Virus record (IMG/VR): IMGVR_UViG_2724678985_000012 | Reading direction: 5' to 3' (one strand) | DNA: 64,000 nt | Source: a virus | Taxonomy: Duplodnaviria; Heunggongvirae; Uroviricota; Caudoviricetes | Shown: piece by piece, positions 25,582 to 34,376 of the stretch | Layout of the letters: every line of letters begins with the position of its first letter | Numbering within the stretch: the stretch's first letter is position 1 | Translations under genes and position numbers: made by a program | Notes under the pieces: generated by a model | Databases searched by the model: none | Told to the model about the DNA's origin: nothing | Seen by the model: only the letters and a program-made list of their open reading frames with translations

Positions 25582-26522
25582 TGAATCTGTCCATCTCTCA
25601 AAAAGCGACAATGACCAGTATTGAGATCGCGGAACTGGTGGGAAGTCGTCACTCTGATGTTAAACGCAGCATCGAAAGACTTGTTGCTAAAGGAGTTATC
25701 CAACATACGCCATTGGCTACAGTTGAGAATAATCAATCACTTAGCCCTAATAAATACACAAAAGCCTATTTCTTCGAAGGCGAACAAGGCAAGCGCGATA
25801 GTATTGTCGTCGTCGCGCAGCTCTCTCCCGAATTCACCGCCCGGCTGGTGGACCGCTGGCGCGAATTGGAGAATGCCCGGGTACAGTTAAAATCAAAAGC
25901 CGAAATTCTGGCTGAAATGGCGCAAATGCATCTTGAACATGAACGCCGGATCAACGCCGTAAATGCCCAGGTAGCCGAGGTATCGGCACAAGTGTCCAGG
26001 GTCGCTGAAACCGTTGAGCAAATCAAGAAAGGCAATATGCCGGAAGGCTACATTGGCTACCGCCAGCTGGCGGCAAAATGCGGCCTGACCGAAGCCAAAT
26101 GTCGCAACCTGGTCAACGCTTACCGGATTCCCACCGATACGCATGAGTTTTTAACTCCCGATGGTTTGCTTGCGCGACGCTCCATTGTGGCCCTGGCCCC
26201 CTTCCGGAAAGCCTTTAAGCAGGTGATGTCGGAGGCAGAACCACGCAATAAACGCTGGTATCATCCAAAGATGGGGATGTTTCAGGCAATCAACCATCCT
26301 GTGCCTGAAAGCCCAAAGGATAATCTGTCACTACATACCGCCAGAGAGAAGATCAGGACTGGATACGCAACAGTGTGTCGTCGTTCTTCCTGGCCTGAAG
26401 GTATATGGGTGTGGCCCGAAGGTGGATCACGAAAGCACTGGCGCACTATCCGGGATGGGAAAATCCATGCTATTGATTTAGCTCCAGAGGATGTTGTTGC
26501 TACGGACTGGATTGTTAGTTAA
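25581..26522 (+). CDS. Rha-family phage regulatory protein (possible antirepressor)
   Basis: 313 aa; N-terminal MTSIEIAELVGSRHSDVKRSIERL typical of Rha domain; coupled to icd-like ORF. Confidence 0.6.
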   Translation: MNLSISQKATMTSIEIAELVGSRHSDVKRSIERLVAKGVIQHTPLATVENNQSLSPNKYTKAYFFEGEQGKRDSIVVVAQLSPEFTARLVDRWRELENARVQLKSKAEILAEMAQMHLEHERRINAVNAQVAEVSAQVSRVAETVEQIKKGNMPEGYIGYRQLAAKCGLTEAKCRNLVNAYRIPTDTHEFLTPDGLLARRSIVALAPFRKAFKQVMSEAEPRNKRWYHPKMGMFQAINHPVPESPKDNLSLHTAREKIRTGYATVCRRSSWPEGIWVWPEGGSRKHWRTIRDGKIHAIDLAPEDVVATDWIVS

Positions 26523-26649
26523 TAGCTTTTGCCCCGGTCAGGCCGGGGCATGATACCAATAAATTGCATAACATAGTGTAGATTAGTAAAATAGCATACT
26601 CACACAGCTTTATAATTATTTGTTTTTTTACGTTAAAGGATGAATAACT

Positions 26650-27000
26650 TTGGCTACTAAAATTAACTTAGAAAATCCTCGGACAGGCGAGTCCATCTCA
26701 GGCTTTTATGGATTCTCCTGGACTACGTTCTTTTTTGGTGCCTTCCCGGCTTTGTTCAGGAAAGACTTTATAACTTTCATCGGGGTGTTCGTTGTGATGC
26801 TAATCCTGGCATTCCTCACTGCAGGAATTGGTCCTTGGGTAGCTTCACTTGTCTGGGCATTTATATACAATAAATATTTCACCGTAAATAAGATAAAACA
26901 AGGATTTGTATTTGCTGGCTCTCACACAGAAAATGAGTTAGCCGCCAGCAAACTTGGATTGGTCTTAAACCAAAACAACTGCAAAACTATTACCGAGTAA
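26650..27000 (+). CDS. Small inner-membrane protein (two TM segments)
   Basis: 116 aa, TTG start with AGGA RBS. Confidence 0.35.
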   Translation: MATKINLENPRTGESISGFYGFSWTTFFFGAFPALFRKDFITFIGVFVVMLILAFLTAGIGPWVASLVWAFIYNKYFTVNKIKQGFVFAGSHTENELAASKLGLVLNQNNCKTITE

Positions 27001-27002
27001 AA

Positions 27003-27037
27003 TTCAAAAAGCAGGCTTAGTCGTTAAGCCTGCTTTA
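27003..27037 (-). terminator. Rho-independent terminator for the minus-strand secreted-protein gene
   Basis: AAAGCAGGCTTAG-tcgt-TAAGCCTGCTTT; T-run on minus strand. Confidence 0.6.
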
Positions 27038-27041
27038 TCAA

Positions 27042-27962
27042 TTACGAATCTTGCTGGCAATTCAGAAACATAAATGCCCGCTTGTCCGTCAAATCAGTGA
27101 CATAATATTCTCTCGTTCCTGTAGGTTTTATTCTACGGGCATATACAAACTTATGTACCGGTTGTTTATCTCCATAACTCACTTCTGTCCTAAACTCATC
27201 AACCACGCTACCATCTTTTTCAGTTTCCTTTCTCACTAGCTGATTTTCTAATACAGGCTTTGATTCGTCCATGCCACTAAAAGCATCCTGACCTGTGCTG
27301 TTGCCTCGGTTTCCGCGTGGTAAATCCCATGAAAAATAAGTGCCATAGTCAGTAATCACACGATCCCATGTTCCGGAATCCCCCATATAGTTAGAACGCT
27401 CCCCCTTGTAAGTTACAGCCACCTTACAGGCATACGTTTCACCATTATTTTTTTTATCATGTCCAGCCATGCTCGCTGTAGTTGCAGGAGTTGCAGGGGA
27501 ATTATGAATAGATGCGCTTACATCATCTTGCGTTAATTCCTCAACTGGAGCAAATTCATATATGGGTGTGCCGAGGCTATTTAAATATAACTTATATCTA
27601 ACCCTAAGCGCACTTCCATCAGAGAATTCATACGTTCCCAGACATTGGAGCTTATTTTTTTCTCTTATCTCATTGATCTGATTATAAGCATCAATTACAG
27701 AGATTGCTTCCTGATCGTCCTTCAGCAGTTCATTATAATCATCGATTAACATCTGTCTGGTTTTAGGGGCATTGCAGTCAATTTTGCTAAAATCATAAGC
27801 AAAGGCAAATGTGGGAACAGAGAGAGCAACAACAGTAGCAAGTATTGTTGAGGAACTTCTTTTTCCATTTTTTATAAAAAACATTTCATTAACTCCATAC
27901 TTTACCATCTTAGCCGCGAGCGCGGTCCCTAAAACCCTTAACTTCACTGCACAGACCTTCAT
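27042..27962 (-). CDS. Secreted protein of unknown function
   Basis: 306-aa ORF; probable start at 27884 (MFFIKNGKRSS...) giving a signal peptide; AT-rich. Confidence 0.45.
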   Translation of the reverse strand: MKVCAVKLRVLGTALAAKMVKYGVNEMFFIKNGKRSSSTILATVVALSVPTFAFAYDFSKIDCNAPKTRQMLIDDYNELLKDDQEAISVIDAYNQINEIREKNKLQCLGTYEFSDGSALRVRYKLYLNSLGTPIYEFAPVEELTQDDVSASIHNSPATPATTASMAGHDKKNNGETYACKVAVTYKGERSNYMGDSGTWDRVITDYGTYFSWDLPRGNRGNSTGQDAFSGMDESKPVLENQLVRKETEKDGSVVDEFRTEVSYGDKQPVHKFVYARRIKPTGTREYYVTDLTDKRAFMFLNCQQDS

Positions 27963-28175
27963 GCAATCAAAATGACTTTTATGTTATAAAAATAATCAGC
28001 CAAATCAACATGATTTAGGCCAAATTTCGGTCAAAAAATAAAATCCACAAAAAGTGGTTGACACTATTTTGGAAATCACAAACTGCACATAATCCATCGC
28101 GCTAACGGCTCCCGTTGAAGGTTCTTTTGACGATTAACTTTCAGCCGAAGCGCGGTAGGGAGTCATAACGCCAAA

Positions 28176-28883: not shown

Positions 28884-29018
28884 TCACATTAGTAGCTTTG
28901 TTAACTCCCTCAATACCAGGTAGAAGAGTAACAAAAATATTGACGCCAGTATTTGAGTGGACAATGAAGCGTTCATAAACAGATCAATTAGCATTAATAA
29001 TTCGAAGATAACATCCAT
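28884..29018 (-). CDS. Small hydrophobic peptide (44 aa), membrane toxin/holin-like candidate
   Basis: Hand-translated MDVIFELLMLIDLFMNASLSTQILASIFLLLFYLVLRELTKLLM; GGAG RBS 9 nt upstream; below ORF-track cutoff. Confidence 0.3.
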   Translation of the reverse strand: MDVIFELLMLIDLFMNASLSTQILASIFLLLFYLVLRELTKLLM

Positions 29019-29211
29019 GTCATTCACTCCGCTTAATTTTTAATCTAATGCCAGCAAATGAAGCTGGCCCCCGCATAAAGATTAATGAAAGTCACTTGTC
29101 ACCAGTGAGGGGATTTATGAACCACATCCCCCTGAACTGGTGGCCTGTCTGTTTCTCGCATTTCACACCCTGCATACAGTTTCCACCAGGTTATGACTGA
29201 GAGGCTTTGTT

Positions 29212-29541
29212 ATGGGCTATAGCAGACTCGACGATAGGTATATTGAAGACGATATTTTTCGTGCGCTGTTTCACCAGGAAATGATTAAGCGGGTATCGGA
29301 GTATCACTCTGATAATTTCCAGTACACGATAAAGATTGATGAAGTATATCGTTCAGACCTTGCAGCCTACAGGGCGTATGGCAATGCAGATTTGCGCTGG
29401 GTATTCCGGGTGCTGGTGGGCCATGAGTCAGAAATGGAAGAAATGCCCGCCGGGACCACGTTAACTCTTCCTGATGTGGCATGGCTGAGGAACAAGATCC
29501 GTGATTACGCGAGCGCGGAACCGGAGATAGAAAATGCCTGA
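29212..29541 (+). CDS. Hypothetical protein
   Basis: 109-aa ORF coupled to downstream gene. Confidence 0.4.
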   Translation: MGYSRLDDRYIEDDIFRALFHQEMIKRVSEYHSDNFQYTIKIDEVYRSDLAAYRAYGNADLRWVFRVLVGHESEMEEMPAGTTLTLPDVAWLRNKIRDYASAEPEIENA

Positions 29542-30724
29542 TTTCCTGAAAAACCAGGACGGGCGCTATATCACTGACGGTCTGTCCTCTAAGGACTTCA
29601 CGCGTTTATTCGACCTTATCAGGAAAGAACAAACCCGTAAGCGCCGACAAGCTCACCGGACGCTGACGCCAGGCAGACTTAGGAACAAATCCGCCGAAGA
29701 TATTCTCAAGTTAGGGAAGAAAAAAGGCGGCACGTTCTTTACGCGAGACGATCTGAAAGGCTTCGAAAAGCTACGGAGTAAAACGCGCGAAAAATATGAC
29801 AGCAAGACGGCTGGCATCACATACGCCCAGCTGGTGGCATCCAGCCAGGCTATCGATATTAAGCGTGCAAATAACGCCGTGGATGACGGATCTGGTATCA
29901 AAAGAGCTACACCCGTATCTCTTCGCCACAATGTGATTAATATCCGCGTAGAAGCATCGGATATATCCGTCCACCAGCACCATATCGTCCGGATACGCTT
30001 TGAAGAATGGGATCAGATGGTTGATGATATCGCAGAAGACGATAAATCAGCTCTCAAAATCACTAAATCACTGTGCGCCGGGCGAGTGTCTTTCGATTGT
30101 GACTGTGGTCGTCATCAATACTGGTATCGTTACATCGCCACTGCGGGTAACTTTGCCCTGGCACCGCCAAAAGAATACGCCTATCCAAAAGTTCGCAACC
30201 CGAAGCTGCAAGGCGTCGCCTGTAAACACGTGATCCACTCAATGACGCGGTTACAGTCCGCCAGTTGGCAAATGAGTATTGCTCGTGCGCTACAAAAGGC
30301 TGCAACGCAAATTGCATTTGGTGACGATCGCCGCCGTACAACCAAACACTTCTCAAAAGAAGACGAGAAGGAGTTTAATCGCAATCGTAGCAGTAAAACG
30401 AACGTTGACGCTGCCAAGCGAGAATGGAGGCTCTATCAGAAGCGCCAGGCCGCTTTAAGCACAAAACTGGCAAAGGACAACGGCAAGATTGACAAGCTAC
30501 GTGACCAACTGACCAAGGCCAGAAAGTTGTCAGACGCACAGAAAAAACGGGCGGCAGCAAAAGAAGCGGCGTTGCAACGTGAGAAACAGAAAAACAAGGA
30601 GCTTCAGCAACGCCTGGCCGATCAGTTCGCACTGAAGAAGCAGGCGTTCATTGATGCGCTTGTCATGGCTGGAACACCACCAGCACAAGCTGAAAAAATG
30701 TTCATGGAGTACATAAAAAATTAA
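29534..30724 (+). CDS. Hypothetical protein with SWIM-like zinc finger and basic coiled-coil tail
   Basis: 396 aa; FDCDCGRH...CKHVIH fits CxCxnCxH; C-terminal Lys/Gln/Ala-rich coiled coil. Confidence 0.45.
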   Translation: MPDFLKNQDGRYITDGLSSKDFTRLFDLIRKEQTRKRRQAHRTLTPGRLRNKSAEDILKLGKKKGGTFFTRDDLKGFEKLRSKTREKYDSKTAGITYAQLVASSQAIDIKRANNAVDDGSGIKRATPVSLRHNVINIRVEASDISVHQHHIVRIRFEEWDQMVDDIAEDDKSALKITKSLCAGRVSFDCDCGRHQYWYRYIATAGNFALAPPKEYAYPKVRNPKLQGVACKHVIHSMTRLQSASWQMSIARALQKAATQIAFGDDRRRTTKHFSKEDEKEFNRNRSSKTNVDAAKREWRLYQKRQAALSTKLAKDNGKIDKLRDQLTKARKLSDAQKKRAAAKEAALQREKQKNKELQQRLADQFALKKQAFIDALVMAGTPPAQAEKMFMEYIKN

Positions 30725-30735
30725 CAAAGGTGGGT

Positions 30736-31470
30736 TTATCCCACCTTTTTATTAGCATCGCATTTAATTTTTTCAAGTGAATCAGAAAGCTTTGAGAGAA
30801 GCTCCTCAAGTGTTTCCCTGTCATTTGTATCACCCGAACGAAAAGATGAGTTTTTCACGGCGGTAAAAAATTCATAAAAATCATCCACCGAATTTAAGCT
30901 CTCACCTTTCTCTCTATATAATTTAATAATATGAATGATATCGCTATCCACACATTCAATCTGTTTCCTAATTTCTTTAAGCCGTTTTTCTAATGATTCA
31001 AGTTCTTCTTCTTCTTGTTCAATATACTTTTTAACGTCTCTCTGCTTCTTAATGGCTTTCTTAATATCACTGTTAATTGTCCTTATTTGTTCTTTTTTAT
31101 TTGCAATTTCATCTATTTTTCTTAATTTAGCATATAATGTGCTTGTCACCAAAGAAATTAACAGGGTTAACAGTGGCGCTAATATTGACGCCACAACACC
31201 ATAAATAAAAGGCAAAACAAAATGAGCTACGAACGATGGTAAAAAAAGATTCCCCAATAATGGGATCTTTTCCCCGACAAACACTATAGATAATGTATAC
31301 ATAACATCATCTTTTGACTTCAGTAATATAAATATGTCTCGCCAATTAGAAATTAAAAACGAAATAAAAATGTAGGCAAAAACCTTATTAAACAACTTAT
31401 CTTTTACAGCATCTTCTAACAGATTTTGGGTAGAGGAGTTTTCCTTTTCTATTGATGAATCAGCGCTCAT
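30736..31470 (-). CDS. Membrane protein with cytoplasmic coiled-coil domain (candidate effector)
   Basis: 244 aa; three to four N-terminal TM segments, Glu/Lys-rich coiled coil; very AT-rich; directly downstream of an HTH antitoxin-like gene. Confidence 0.5.
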   Translation of the reverse strand: MSADSSIEKENSSTQNLLEDAVKDKLFNKVFAYIFISFLISNWRDIFILLKSKDDVMYTLSIVFVGEKIPLLGNLFLPSFVAHFVLPFIYGVVASILAPLLTLLISLVTSTLYAKLRKIDEIANKKEQIRTINSDIKKAIKKQRDVKKYIEQEEEELESLEKRLKEIRKQIECVDSDIIHIIKLYREKGESLNSVDDFYEFFTAVKNSSFRSGDTNDRETLEELLSKLSDSLEKIKCDANKKVG

Positions 31471-31530
31471 ATAATTACCAAATATTTAAACATTGATTTT
31501 ATGTAAAAGCGGTCATCCAGACCGCAAAAC

Positions 31531-31890
31531 TTAAACACCAACCAGACTTTCCAGTGGAATACCAAACTGGGCATGTAAACGACGAATCATAGGTAACGTC
31601 AAATTTCGTGTCCCATTAAGCACTTCGTAAACACGGTTTGACTTACCAATTGCCGGTTCCAGATCCTTCACGGTCAGTCCTTGCTGTTCCATACGGAATT
31701 TAATGGCCTCAATAGGTGATGGTGGCTCAATTGGGTAATGTTTTTTCTCGTACTCCTCAATGAGAAGACACATAACCTCAAAGAAATCGCCTTCCGGTGT
31801 GTTCATTTCCGGTTCGTTATCGAACATCGGTTCGACCGCACGCAGTGCGGCCTCATAATCTTGTTCTGTACGGATAGGTTTAATGTTCAT
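31531..31890 (-). CDS. HigA-like HTH protein (E. coli K-12 HigA architecture), no adjacent RelE-type toxin
   Basis: 119 aa; N-terminal domain plus C-terminal HTH GLTVKDLEPAIGKSNRVYEVLNGTRNLTLPMIRRLHAQFGI as recalled for K-12 HigA. Confidence 0.55.
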   Translation of the reverse strand: MNIKPIRTEQDYEAALRAVEPMFDNEPEMNTPEGDFFEVMCLLIEEYEKKHYPIEPPSPIEAIKFRMEQQGLTVKDLEPAIGKSNRVYEVLNGTRNLTLPMIRRLHAQFGIPLESLVGV

Positions 31891-31899
31891 TAATTACAA

Positions 31900-31930
31900 A
31901 GGAAAGCCCACTTGCTAAGTGGGCTTTTTG
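31900..31930. terminator. Palindromic terminator separating higBA from the downstream two-gene unit
   Basis: AAAGCCCACTT-gcta-AGTGGGCTTT with T/A-rich flanks. Confidence 0.6.
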
Positions 31931-31946
31931 TATGTGTTTTACTATA

Positions 31947-32285
31947 TCAGGCTGCTTTTTTATTCAGGTTCCGCTGAGAAATAAATTTTTCAGCAGTATT
32001 GATACGACTTAACTCTTCCTGAACGCGCATATCATTTTCGACTTCCCACAGTTCTACTGCGGTCTGAAGATTAATCCAAAAATCTACAGAAGTATCGAAT
32101 GCTTTTGCCAGGCGATATGCCATATCCATCGTTAGCTTACGATTATTATTAACAAGAGCACTTACGGTGTTACGATGAACATGAAGTATTTCTGCTAACT
32201 CGTTGATCTTCAGCTCTAACGGCTCCAGGTATTCGTACAGCAGGATATCACCTACGGTCGTCGGTTTTCTGGTTGCCTGTTTCAT
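31947..32285 (-). CDS. higA: HigA antitoxin (HTH, HigA family)
   Basis: 112 aa; VGDILLYEYLEPL...LA..L.V.RNTVSALVN..R.LT.DMAYRLAKAF.TS..FW.NLQ matches HigA/VapI family. Confidence 0.75.
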   Translation of the reverse strand: MKQATRKPTTVGDILLYEYLEPLELKINELAEILHVHRNTVSALVNNNRKLTMDMAYRLAKAFDTSVDFWINLQTAVELWEVENDMRVQEELSRINTAEKFISQRNLNKKAA

Positions 32286-32355
32286 TTTTTGCCCTTACTA
32301 GCGTGCGTATTAAGTGGACTCTGGTCAGAACCCGGTCCGTAACCGGGTATCTGTT

Positions 32356-32658
32356 TTAGTATTTGTGAGGGTCGAGATACAAGTCCTCGGCCTTTCCGTT
32401 AACCCACTTAAAAATTAACCTATATTGCTTATTCACCCTTACTGATGAATAGCCATTTAGCTTCCCTGACAGTTCCTCATACCGATTACCTGGTGGTGAT
32501 CTTAAATCCTTACAGGTAGTTGCGGCATTGATAATGTCCAACTTCCGTGACAATGTCATATGAATATCAGGAGGTATCTTTCTATGTGGTGTTGAAAATT
32601 CAAAAAAATCATCAAGCCACGCATCCCTGAAATCCTTTATGTTAATTTTTTTGGTCAT
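32356..32658 (-). CDS. higB: HigB toxin (RelE/ParE superfamily, plasmid killer)
   Basis: 100 aa upstream of higA; C-terminal YRLIFKWVNGKAEDLYLDPH typical of HigB. Confidence 0.7.
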   Translation of the reverse strand: MTKKINIKDFRDAWLDDFFEFSTPHRKIPPDIHMTLSRKLDIINAATTCKDLRSPPGNRYEELSGKLNGYSSVRVNKQYRLIFKWVNGKAEDLYLDPHKY

Positions 32659-32808
32659 TAGTCATTTGATCCTCCGTGATGATTACCGAATGCCATAACT
32701 ATAGCGCACCGTTGCACTGTGCGCAAGTGCATTTTATGAATTCCCCCTCCTTCATCCAAAATCACAATCTCCCGAAAATCTTCCTTTCGATACCTGACAG
32801 ATCGACCT

Positions 32809-33612
32809 TTGAGGATGCTTATGGGCCGTTTTGACGAATGGTTTGCTGACGATGCAAACCTGGCAAGTAAGGAGTCAGAACATGACAGCACGCAGAGAGA
32901 AACGCCAGCGCCGATTGAAGCGAATGCAGGAGGCGCGCCGGAACATGGCAATACCGGTTCGGATTCATTCAGCATTCTGGAAGAGCAACCCGCCGCCAAA
33001 GCTGATAGCCATGATAATTTTGCTGATAGCAACGGTGGCCTTACTCCGGATGCTGGCGAATCAGATATAGCCATACTTCCATCTTCCCTGGCTGGCAGAG
33101 AACCGACTCCACAGTTAAAAGCACGCTATAACGGGCATAAAGCCTTTAACGACCAAATCCGCGCAGACTGGATGCTGATTATTGAATCCAGCCCAGACGC
33201 GTTTCAGGCTCTCTTATATCGACCAGATGTTGGCACATATGGGGTAGTCAGCGACGAAACAGGAGAAGAGTCATTCACTGAACTGGATAACAACCAACGC
33301 GAACTGACTTACCAGGAACCTGAAATCGTTTATGTGCTGGATAACCCTGACGGGCGTGACTCTTTCCATGCGATTGACGCAGACGGTGAGCAGGATGGCT
33401 TAACCGATGATGTTCTGATTCTGCGTATTGCAGCAAATAACGTCCCCGTCGGCTCAATTCTTGAATGGAATGAAGAGATGGTAAACGGCGTAGCCCGCCG
33501 CTGGTGGTACGTGCACCGTATTTTTAGCTACGGCACACAGCATGTTGGTTCGCTTTACTACTGCATACCTGCCAGAAATTTTGATACGACTCAAAACGGA
33601 GTGATCGAATGA
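32809..33612 (+). CDS. Acidic hypothetical protein
   Basis: 267 aa; first of four coupled plus-strand genes ending in a spike-like gene. Confidence 0.4.
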   Translation: MRMLMGRFDEWFADDANLASKESEHDSTQRETPAPIEANAGGAPEHGNTGSDSFSILEEQPAAKADSHDNFADSNGGLTPDAGESDIAILPSSLAGREPTPQLKARYNGHKAFNDQIRADWMLIIESSPDAFQALLYRPDVGTYGVVSDETGEESFTELDNNQRELTYQEPEIVYVLDNPDGRDSFHAIDADGEQDGLTDDVLILRIAANNVPVGSILEWNEEMVNGVARRWWYVHRIFSYGTQHVGSLYYCIPARNFDTTQNGVIE

Positions 33613-34376
33613 CTTCAAATAAAACCCTCCTGGCACGAACAGGTGAATGGCAAACCTCACGCACAGGAAAATTCCAGACCACGGGCTTTGAAAACGTGGA
33701 TAACGCGTTTGCTACGCTAATCAGCAATATCTTTTCTGATATCTTACTGGTGGCCCCCGCGCCGGAAGAAAAACGCTTTGCGTCATTCCTGAATCGTCCA
33801 CCAGCAGAGCGTGTCTATGTGGCCCGTTTCGACAATGCGATCGAGTTTCTTAAAGCAGTTCGTCGCGCAAATGCCGGGCAAGGGAGAAAACCTGAAAACC
33901 AGAACATTAACCGGGATGCTCTCCCCCTGGTCAATATCTCACGCACTATGGATATCAATTATATCAACGATGATCAGCAGATTGACCGCAAAAAAGTAGC
34001 CAGTTTTTGCGAACCGGATACCGGAATGCCTTTAGCAGAACTGGAATACACCCAGGCCATTCTGACGTATGACGTTACGTTAATGGCAACTGATAAAGCG
34101 ACCATGAGTCTGATGTGTAATTCGCTGGGCGCACGGCTTCGCCTGATGACAGGTACACAATTTGAAGCAACCACTCACCTTGTTCGTGTCCCGGTCCCGC
34201 TGATTTGCTCGATACAGGATGCCAAAGAAGTCGGCTTTACGGATGTTTCAGCACCAATTGGAGAAGAGCGTATTTATGCCACACAAGCGCCGATAAGTGT
34301 GATTGCAGACGTGATCACAGCATGGGAGTTGGACGCAAAACGTATTATTACCGAAACCTCGATATCTATGGGGTGA
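33609..34376 (+). CDS. Hypothetical protein (putative baseplate/tail assembly)
   Basis: 255 aa, coupled. Confidence 0.4.
   Translation: MTSNKTLLARTGEWQTSRTGKFQTTGFENVDNAFATLISNIFSDILLVAPAPEEKRFASFLNRPPAERVYVARFDNAIEFLKAVRRANAGQGRKPENQNINRDALPLVNISRTMDINYINDDQQIDRKKVASFCEPDTGMPLAELEYTQAILTYDVTLMATDKATMSLMCNSLGARLRLMTGTQFEATTHLVRVPVPLICSIQDAKEVGFTDVSAPIGEERIYATQAPISVIADVITAWELDAKRIITETSISMG

Follow-up and report, generated by a model that had tools for sequence, protein, structure and literature searches.

The 64,000-nt stretch of DNA analyzed here (the window; IMG/VR record IMGVR_UViG_2724678985_000012) represents a D6-like phage-plasmid of the P1 family. Four minus-strand genes of the window form an accessory island between homologues of the P1 tail genes 25 and 7, which in P1 itself are separated by only 3 nt, with nothing between them. 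Two genes of this island, located 60 bp apart on the same strand, encode a 119-amino-acid (aa) HigA-like protein (HigA119) and a 244-aa AT-rich membrane protein gene product (MEM). An earlier reading of the letters alone, referred to below as the original prediction, correctly delineated both open reading frames (ORFs) and proposed that they make up a new regulator-effector pair, namely a toxin-antitoxin (TA) or abortive-infection module. The comparative analysis speaks against such a pair. With a probability of about 0.68, HigA119 and MEM are parts of two independent accessory modules that came to share one insertion hot spot of the D6-like phage-plasmid, and there is no two-gene system. The coordinates of the features are listed in Table 1.

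Judging from sequence comparisons, HigA119 is an ordinary HigA of the Escherichia coli K-12 type, a protein of a known kind, and its cognate partner is a HigB toxin of the PF09907 family. Residues 6–112 align with the solved structures of E. coli HigA (5IFG_B/5YCL_A) across both domains (E 2.8e-8, phmmer against PDB), so the K-12-like two-domain architecture proposed originally was recovered. The Pfam domain HTH_3 occupies the C-terminal part of the protein (residues 63–115), positions 1–119 of the 402 positions of the PADLOC model PD-Lambda-2_B match it with an E-value of 7e-43, and it also matches phrog_1373. In recent RefSeq annotation this protein is named "HigA family antitoxin."

The lost partner was found in sister plasmids. 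In pF374-2 (L001), an identical HigA119 starts 3 nt after the gene of a 100-aa PF09907 (K-12-type) HigB, and the same arrangement with 99%–100% identical HigA119 is present at ten further loci (L007-9, L012, L031, L037-40, and L045). At such loci, where HigB, HigA, and MEM form a trio, the GGAG Shine-Dalgarno sequence of HigA119 lies inside the 3' end of higB, and two TCCCA-N3-TGGGA palindromes overlap the TTTACA...TACTAT promoter of PF09907 higB. In pF374-2 they are the palindromes TCCCAgcaTGGGA and GTCCCAtatTGGGAC (L001:4728-4775, minus strand), overlapping the TTTACA/TACTAT promoter; they are candidate HigA119 operators and are absent from the window. A longer version, GTCCCA-N3-TGGGAC, is present in eight trio loci. 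The palindrome core was not found across the 64-kb window except for one chance-level hit with one mismatch, and there was none near MEM. The sister-plasmid HigA119, translationally coupled to PF09907 HigB and with palindromes over the promoter, thus resembles the K-12 HigB-HigA system (YgjN-YgjM; PF09907; PDB 5IFG). The window differs from that system in the absence of HigB, promoter, and palindromes, in the length of HigA (119 versus 138 aa), and in the presence of MEM behind a hairpin. No PF09907 HigB is encoded directly upstream of HigA119 in the window, where the neighbors are a 112-aa HigA and a PF05015 HigB; the original prediction was therefore right that the gene stands without its cognate toxin. 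An analogous palindrome, GTTTCC-N5-GGAAAC, was observed beside a TATAAT box at L056, a locus of another P1-like lineage.

HigA119 is an orphan because a PF05015 higBA cassette replaced its higB. In pairwise blastn comparisons, a stretch of the window stands in place of positions 4399-4781 of L001, which contain PF09907 higB and its promoter. Besides about 100 bp that precede the operon, the swapped-in stretch comprises PF05015 higB, the 112-aa higA, and a terminator. The left junction (window position 31897) is about 7 nt ahead of the HigA119 start codon. The replacement removed the GGAG Shine-Dalgarno sequence and both promoter palindromes. It also placed the HigA119 start codon 12 nt past a strong terminator with a 13-bp stem, which is the palindromic terminator noticed originally toward the neighboring higBA pair. 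With its start so close behind this terminator and its Shine-Dalgarno sequence missing, HigA119 is probably poorly expressed in the window. The incoming pair is itself the HigB-HigA system of the Rts1/Proteus type (PF05015 and TIGR02607), the "higA-higB" addiction system of D6. It differs from the K-12-type system in that its toxin belongs to a family other than that of the HigA119 partner, that it arrived by cassette replacement, and that its own terminator insulates it. A paper on the D6-like population describes only "higA-higB," as an addiction or post-segregational killing module (PMC6799933).

A comparable event was found in a second P1-like lineage. At L057:1779-3714 (IMGVR_UViG_2906128962_000004), which is a sister of a Pseudocitrobacter element, a cassette of TacA and a GNAT toxin is located where L056:3221-4708 has higB and the 5' part of higA. 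A HigA fragment (residues 22–78) was left at L057, and MEM is intact. TA modules thus appear, from the sequences of two lineages, to displace one another upstream of MEM. The locus offers a clean natural case of TA replacement at one site, from PF09907 higB to PF05015 higBA here and to TacAT in the second P1-like lineage, with a measurable relaxation of the stranded antitoxin.

This relaxation is evident from allelic variation. The eight trio alleles of HigA119, in which HigB is present, contain 33 synonymous variants and 1 non-synonymous variant, whereas the ten orphan alleles, in which HigB has been lost, contain 44 synonymous and 15 non-synonymous variants, including a stop codon (Fisher's exact p=0.0046). 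The pooled ratio of non-synonymous to synonymous polymorphism (pN/pS) of HigA119 is 0.01 for trio and 0.08 for orphan alleles. Decay of the orphan gene is manifested by the stop codon in L021 and by disruption in L035. In the L004 class, HigA is cut at a breakpoint corresponding to window position 31709 to a 66-aa N-terminal stub without the helix-turn-helix (HTH) domain. MEM is present in both the trio and the orphan contexts and is therefore not what keeps HigA119 constrained: the constraint tracks HigB, not MEM.

HigA119 and MEM are separable in both directions. The L004 class is the most common among the D6-like elements: it accounts for 14 of the 25 plasmid rows sampled and for 10 of the 22 viral loci, and with 535 members it forms the largest protein cluster. 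Its MEM is intact in 7 of 7 distinct sequences, contains no stop codons, and has a pN/pS of 0.30. In plasmids of the pF719-4 type, conversely, HigA119 is kept and the MEM stretch is cleanly missing, from directly behind the hairpin up to the gene 25 end (30721-31504); in blastn comparison with L005, homology to the window is confined to positions 29500-30720 and 31505-33700. Co-occurrence of the two genes, proposed originally as a check, was observed in most loci with full-length HigA119, and the trio recurs, but each gene was also found without the other. The original prediction also overlooked a hairpin between the HTH and membrane genes (31525-31509). Each lineage examined has a stable hairpin behind the higA stop codon, with sequences that are unrelated between lineages. 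The genes of a type II TA system are inherited together and form a single tightly coupled operon. Here MEM is kept with a truncated HigA or occurs solo, HigA119 occurs without MEM, and the 60-bp gap between them contains a terminator-like hairpin.

The MEM gene has a GC content of 31.8%, whereas the window as a whole has 46.8% and the flanking tail genes have 49%, in agreement with the originally noted AT richness. Its coding sequence is strongly A-rich and rich in lysine codons; A-rich codons are reportedly preferred by HigB-type toxins, and, speculatively, the MEM mRNA could be a preferred HigB substrate. The protein matches phrog_8191 over its full length (residues 1–242 of 242, E 2.4e-75), a cluster annotated as "unknown function." In searches of MEM and four other alleles against Pfam, NCBIfam, and PADLOC, no family was assigned, with sub-threshold coiled-coil noise at most, and the claim that this protein belongs to no named family thus held. 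The best PADLOC match of MEM was LmuB (E 2.4e-6), covering the coiled-coil region at residues 120–235, and the other alleles had none; matches of MEM or its alleles to Vps5, SMC, Rad50, LmuB, and JetC were rejected as compositional, arising in the coiled-coil region. Literature searches on the protein accessions and on HigB together with phage-plasmid defense returned nothing on these genes.

The hydropathy profile of MEM contains one 44-residue hydrophobic block (residues 71–114) and a weaker one at about 30–50, and two hydrophobic helices are conserved in the family-wide alignment. Membrane helices were therefore rightly anticipated by the original prediction, but their number was probably overestimated at three to four. 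The AlphaFold model of MEM (predicted local distance difference test [pLDDT] score 74.6) contains short helices at residues 29–64 and one continuous helix at residues 79–188. Residues 116–190 are 51% charged, and the pLDDT exceeds 90 for approximately residues 120–160, which lends indirect support to the long charged coiled coil. MEM is predicted to be anchored in the inner membrane by two hydrophobic helices; behind them come a long charged helix and, at the C-terminus, a small helical domain. Given two conserved transmembrane helices and a K/R-rich sequence immediately behind the second, the C-terminal half may be cytoplasmic. A Foldseek search of PDB with the first MEM model (built from 15 close sequences, pLDDT 60.8) returned nothing, and in general the sequence and structure searches that the original prediction had called for revealed no relatives of MEM with known function.

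At least five MEM alleles, only 40%–50% identical to each other, reside in D6-like backbones that are themselves nearly identical (95%–99% at the nucleotide level). In blastn comparisons homology breaks inside MEM, after the codons of the membrane domain, at position 31262 relative to D6 and at 31184 relative to L003. Among the closer alleles, the ratio of non-synonymous to synonymous substitution rates (dN/dS) is 0.10–0.35 for residues 1–115 and 0.7–1.2, with a maximum of 2.0, for residues 116–244, where the reading frame nevertheless stays open. These sequence patterns show a constrained anchor and a fast-evolving soluble half exchanged by recombination.

A profile search of 1.84 billion representative proteins identified 68 MEM clusters. 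Remote members are 205–270 aa long and have one common architecture: an N-terminal motif YxYxxxSxxxxNW[QE]xILIxxKSK, a second hydrophobic helix with the motif FxLPxxxGxxAxxxMPxxT, a charged helix, and a C-terminal "ExxxDLxxF...YP" domain. They link phrog_8191, which MEM matches end to end, to phrog_4780, phrog_13369, and phrog_35327. All these clusters lack a described function and a Pfam family, so that membership is mechanistically uninformative. A scan of GTDB species representatives yielded one locus only.

Outside the D6-like elements MEM often stands alone. It occupies the gp7-gp25 site of more distant P1-like contigs (gp25 73% and gp7 57% identical) without HigBA. In Klebsiella P2-like prophages it lies alone between gpV and gpS, on the opposite strand (42 index blocks); this is probably the position of the non-essential orf30 in P2. 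In another P2-like contig it lies alone between ogr and gpD. Solo MEM genes were also found beside an AAA_21/AAA_15 ATPase and a Dcm methylase, beside UmuC, and in the chromosome of Enterobacter cancerogenus. In one Klebsiella P2-like element (L052:3065-5576), the solo MEM relative adjoins the gene of a 247-aa phrog_10503 protein of unknown function. Conversely, Cronobacter phage JK004 carries an Enterobacter-type HigBA but no MEM. MEM represents a widespread unannotated membrane family of D6-like plasmids and Klebsiella P2-like prophages with an evolutionary signature of an arms race.

Trios located in the Leclercia chromosome and at L017-19 were considered as independent chromosomal contexts and rejected, because fragments of gp25 and gp7 flank them. 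These chromosomal copies are therefore relics rather than independent assemblies. In the relics MEM is truncated (Leclercia chromosome), interrupted (Klebsiella plasmids), or nearly full length (L017-19), while HigBA is intact in all of them. In the chromosome of Leclercia sp. 29361 (L020:3700-6400) and at L015, the trio island is flanked by fragments of the P1-like tail genes 7 and 25; the TA genes are intact and MEM is shortened to 205 aa. By its sequence, the Leclercia island stems from a phage-plasmid of which it is a piece, either domesticated or in decay. In the Klebsiella pneumoniae IncFIB/IncHI1B plasmid NZ_CP102995 (L010:3174-5734), a trio relic is located beside IS66, with intact HigB and HigA and with MEM split by an insert of about 1 kb. 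Klebsiella plasmids with such a relic are in many cases larger than 100 kb; tblastn hits were obtained in 55 Klebsiella plasmids, and 125 Klebsiella plasmids contain a fragment of tail gene 25 of about 200 bp.

The following scenario probably accounts for these data. A PF05015 higB-higA operon with its own terminator would have replaced PF09907 higB together with its promoter, Shine-Dalgarno sequence, and candidate operators. HigA119, presumably once the antitoxin and autorepressor of PF09907 HigB, would have become an orphan relic under relaxed selection, truncated or disrupted in sister lineages. MEM would be an autonomous gene cassette behind a hairpin. It may be expressed from the prophage and act in conflicts between phages or between phage and host, as a superinfection-exclusion or abortive-infection factor whose variable C-terminal half would be a putative specificity domain. 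The TA cassettes upstream of MEM would turn over since the site is a hot spot, and not for any need of MEM. Prophage morons and membrane proteins of superinfection exclusion include P22 SieA, T4 Imm, and HK97 gp15. MEM resembles this group in being prophage-borne, AT-rich, membrane-anchored, dispensable, highly polymorphic between near-identical backbones, and, in the D6-like, Enterobacter-type, and Klebsiella P2-like loci, oriented opposite to the late genes; it differs from them in that library and structure searches detected no sequence or fold similarity. More tentatively, MEM may be the founder of an unrecognized family of membrane-anchored (pro)phage conflict proteins with a two-helix anchor and a diversifying, recombining cytoplasmic coiled-coil/helical specificity half. 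Such a family would reside in tail clusters of P1-like and P2-like elements and, in P1-like elements, would be recurrently coupled to an upstream TA module, possibly as a tripartite HigB-HigA-MEM system. MEM lends itself to phage-exclusion screens as an inexpensive and specific candidate.

Several observations weigh against independent modules and a conflict role of MEM. The trio of PF09907 HigB, HigA, and, behind a hairpin, MEM keeps its order across three lineages that diverged deeply, and it occupies two different loci of P1-like elements. It is present in D6-type loci; in Enterobacter/Klebsiella-type P1-like elements, where HigB, HigA, and MEM are 25.5%, 29%–30%, and 31%–39% identical to the D6-like proteins; and in a Pseudocitrobacter P1-like element at another locus, between the tail-tube gene and pmgC. 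Identity between the lineages is 25%–54% for HigB, 29%–53% for HigA, and 24%–40% for MEM. Such recurrence could reflect functional coupling rather than co-residence. The pN/pS of orphan HigA119 is still only 0.08, leaving room for a residual function, and the 66-aa N-terminal ORF is intact in the L004 class; in the 5IFG structure of K-12 HigA, it is the N-terminal domain that touches the toxin. A consensus scan detected no convincing sigma-70 promoter directly upstream of MEM in the window or in the solo copies L047 and L052, a result that is uninformative rather than negative, and MEM may be transcribed by read-through from the upstream TA operon. A conserved TAAAAT that precedes the start of the D6-type MEM by about 35 nt is a candidate -10 element only. 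Finally, the conflict role of MEM is a guess, drawn from context and evolutionary pattern and not from homology or a fold match.

The pair envisaged in the original prediction, with MEM as a membrane toxin or abortive-infection effector and HigA119 as its antitoxin or repressor, is highly improbable. Adjacency on one strand with a 60-bp gap, co-occurrence in most loci with full-length HigA119, and a general resemblance to regulator-plus-membrane-effector systems made it attractive. However, the cognate partner of HigA119 is PF09907 HigB, and the constraint on HigA119 relaxes upon the loss of this toxin though MEM remains. In elements whose HTH domain has been deleted, MEM remains under purifying selection, and it is absent from some elements with intact HigA119; its relatives are solo elsewhere. 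A hairpin separates the genes, and the candidate HigA operator was not found near MEM or in the window. To describe the locus as a new module of two genes, whether for TA or for abortive infection, would misdirect both annotation and experiments.

The main rival still standing, although an unlikely one, is that PF09907 HigB, HigA, and MEM form a three-component TA-derived system like PD-lambda-2 or CmdTAC, with MEM as an accessory sensor or effector; the window would then be a rewired or degenerate version with the other HigBA substituting for HigB. In addition to the order and hairpin kept in three deep lineages at two loci, this view is favored by the persistence of a TA module upstream of MEM after both swaps and by the hypervariable C-terminal half of MEM, which would suit a sensor. 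Moreover, the PADLOC models of PD-lambda-2 match the trio proteins: PD-Lambda-2_A matches the D6-type HigB (E 1e-41), and PD-Lambda-2_B matches HigA119 as described above. In PD-lambda-2, component B is the toxic one and carries an ImmA/IrrE-type peptidase at its C-terminus, component C resembles the P4 antitoxin, and this third gene is required for defense (Vassallo et al. 2022, PMC9519451). The trio likewise consists of three genes built on HigBA, but it lacks the peptidase and a PD-lambda-2C homologue, and its third gene encodes a membrane/coiled-coil protein. By sequence, the locus of the window does not belong to PD-lambda-2. Its PF05015 HigB has no PADLOC match to component A, which only the PF09907 HigB of sister plasmids matches; HigA119 has no peptidase domain in Pfam and PADLOC searches and covers only the first 119 model positions of component B; and MEM has no PADLOC or Pfam hit corresponding to component C. 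The three-component view is further weakened by the chromosomal and Klebsiella plasmid trios, which look like P1-like relics with gp25/gp7 remnants or a disrupted MEM, and in which MEM decays while HigBA stays intact. MEM is solo in many prophages and persists after the loss of HigB, and HigBA is solo in JK004.

Two further alternatives concern single genes of the island. The orphan HigA119 could have been retained for anti-addiction, cross-neutralizing the PF09907 HigB of competing incompatible D6-like phage-plasmids, or as a backup against the resident PF05015 HigB, which would be compatible with an autonomous MEM. Anti-addiction by orphan antitoxins is an established concept, exemplified by chromosomal ccd, and trio-type and swap-type plasmids circulate in one host species. 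The low pN/pS of the orphan alleles and the intact N-terminal ORF of the truncated class fit this view, which nevertheless seems doubtful: constraint is significantly relaxed relative to trio alleles, a stop codon, disruption, and truncation have occurred, the gene starts just behind a strong terminator with its Shine-Dalgarno sequence lost, and the low pN/pS may largely predate orphaning. That MEM serves the cycle of the phage itself, in lysis timing, DNA entry or exit, or virion or tail assembly at the membrane, is improbable. This idea derives from the tail genes that surround it in P1-like elements, from its neighbors in P2-like ones, which are tail or baseplate genes, and from a weak sub-threshold likeness to Rz-like spanin PHROGs (E 0.01–0.1). 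On the other hand, P1 itself and viable-looking D6-like variants do without MEM, which is also found away from structural modules and is AT-rich like acquired cargo, with hypervariable alleles in near-identical backbones. It lies on the strand opposite to the late genes in D6-like, Enterobacter-type, and Klebsiella P2-like loci, being on the same strand in L056. An autonomous MEM and a stranded antitoxin remain the preferred explanation.

Table 1. Features of the accessory island of the D6-like phage-plasmid and its borders (positions in the 64-kb window)
Feature	Position	Strand	Basis
Tail gene 25 homologue; left border of the island	29534..30724	+	D6 annotation; 56%–57% identity to P1 gp25
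MEM cassette boundaries; block missing in pF719-4-type plasmids	30721..31504	-	Pairwise blastn versus L005
Terminator-like hairpin at the MEM end, facing the convergent tail gene 25	30726..30748	-	
MEM, 244 aa, AT-rich gene; membrane protein with a long charged helix	30736..31470	-	ORF; phrog_8191
Hairpin GCGGTC-TGGAT-GACCGC followed by TTTT, located between MEM and the higA stop codon, directly behind the latter	31509..31525	-	
HigA119, 119 aa, K-12-type HigA, orphan in the window	31531..31890	-	PDB, PADLOC, and phrog_1373 matches
Swapped-in cassette: promoter region, PF05015 higB, higA, and terminator	31898..32758	-	blastn breakpoints versus L001
Strong bidirectional intrinsic terminator, 13-bp stem, closing the PF05015 higBA operon	31901..31929	both	
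higA, 112 aa, TIGR02607	31947-32285	-	NCBIfam
PF05015 higB	32356-32658	-	Pfam
Tail gene 7 homologue; right border of the island	32809..33612	+	D6 annotation; P1 comparison

The D6-like locus was found in 101 of 5,426 complete E. coli genomes (about 2%) and was plasmid-borne in all 101. An Rfam scan of positions 30400-33000 revealed nothing near the gathering scores and gave no indication of an RNA antitoxin of type I or type III. A second variable TA slot exists in the same tail region: a RelE/ParE and HigA pair is located between the homologues of mat and gene 26 in sister plasmids (L001:1049-1620, L003, and L005) and is missing from D6 and from the window (region of about 28884-29211). Positions 26450-28100 of the window make up a second AT-rich stretch (36%–40% GC) where D6 has a simB-like superimmunity gene. 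This stretch encodes a small hydrophobic protein of 116 aa (26650-27000, plus strand) and a protein of 306 aa whose N-terminus looks signal-like (27042-27962, minus strand).

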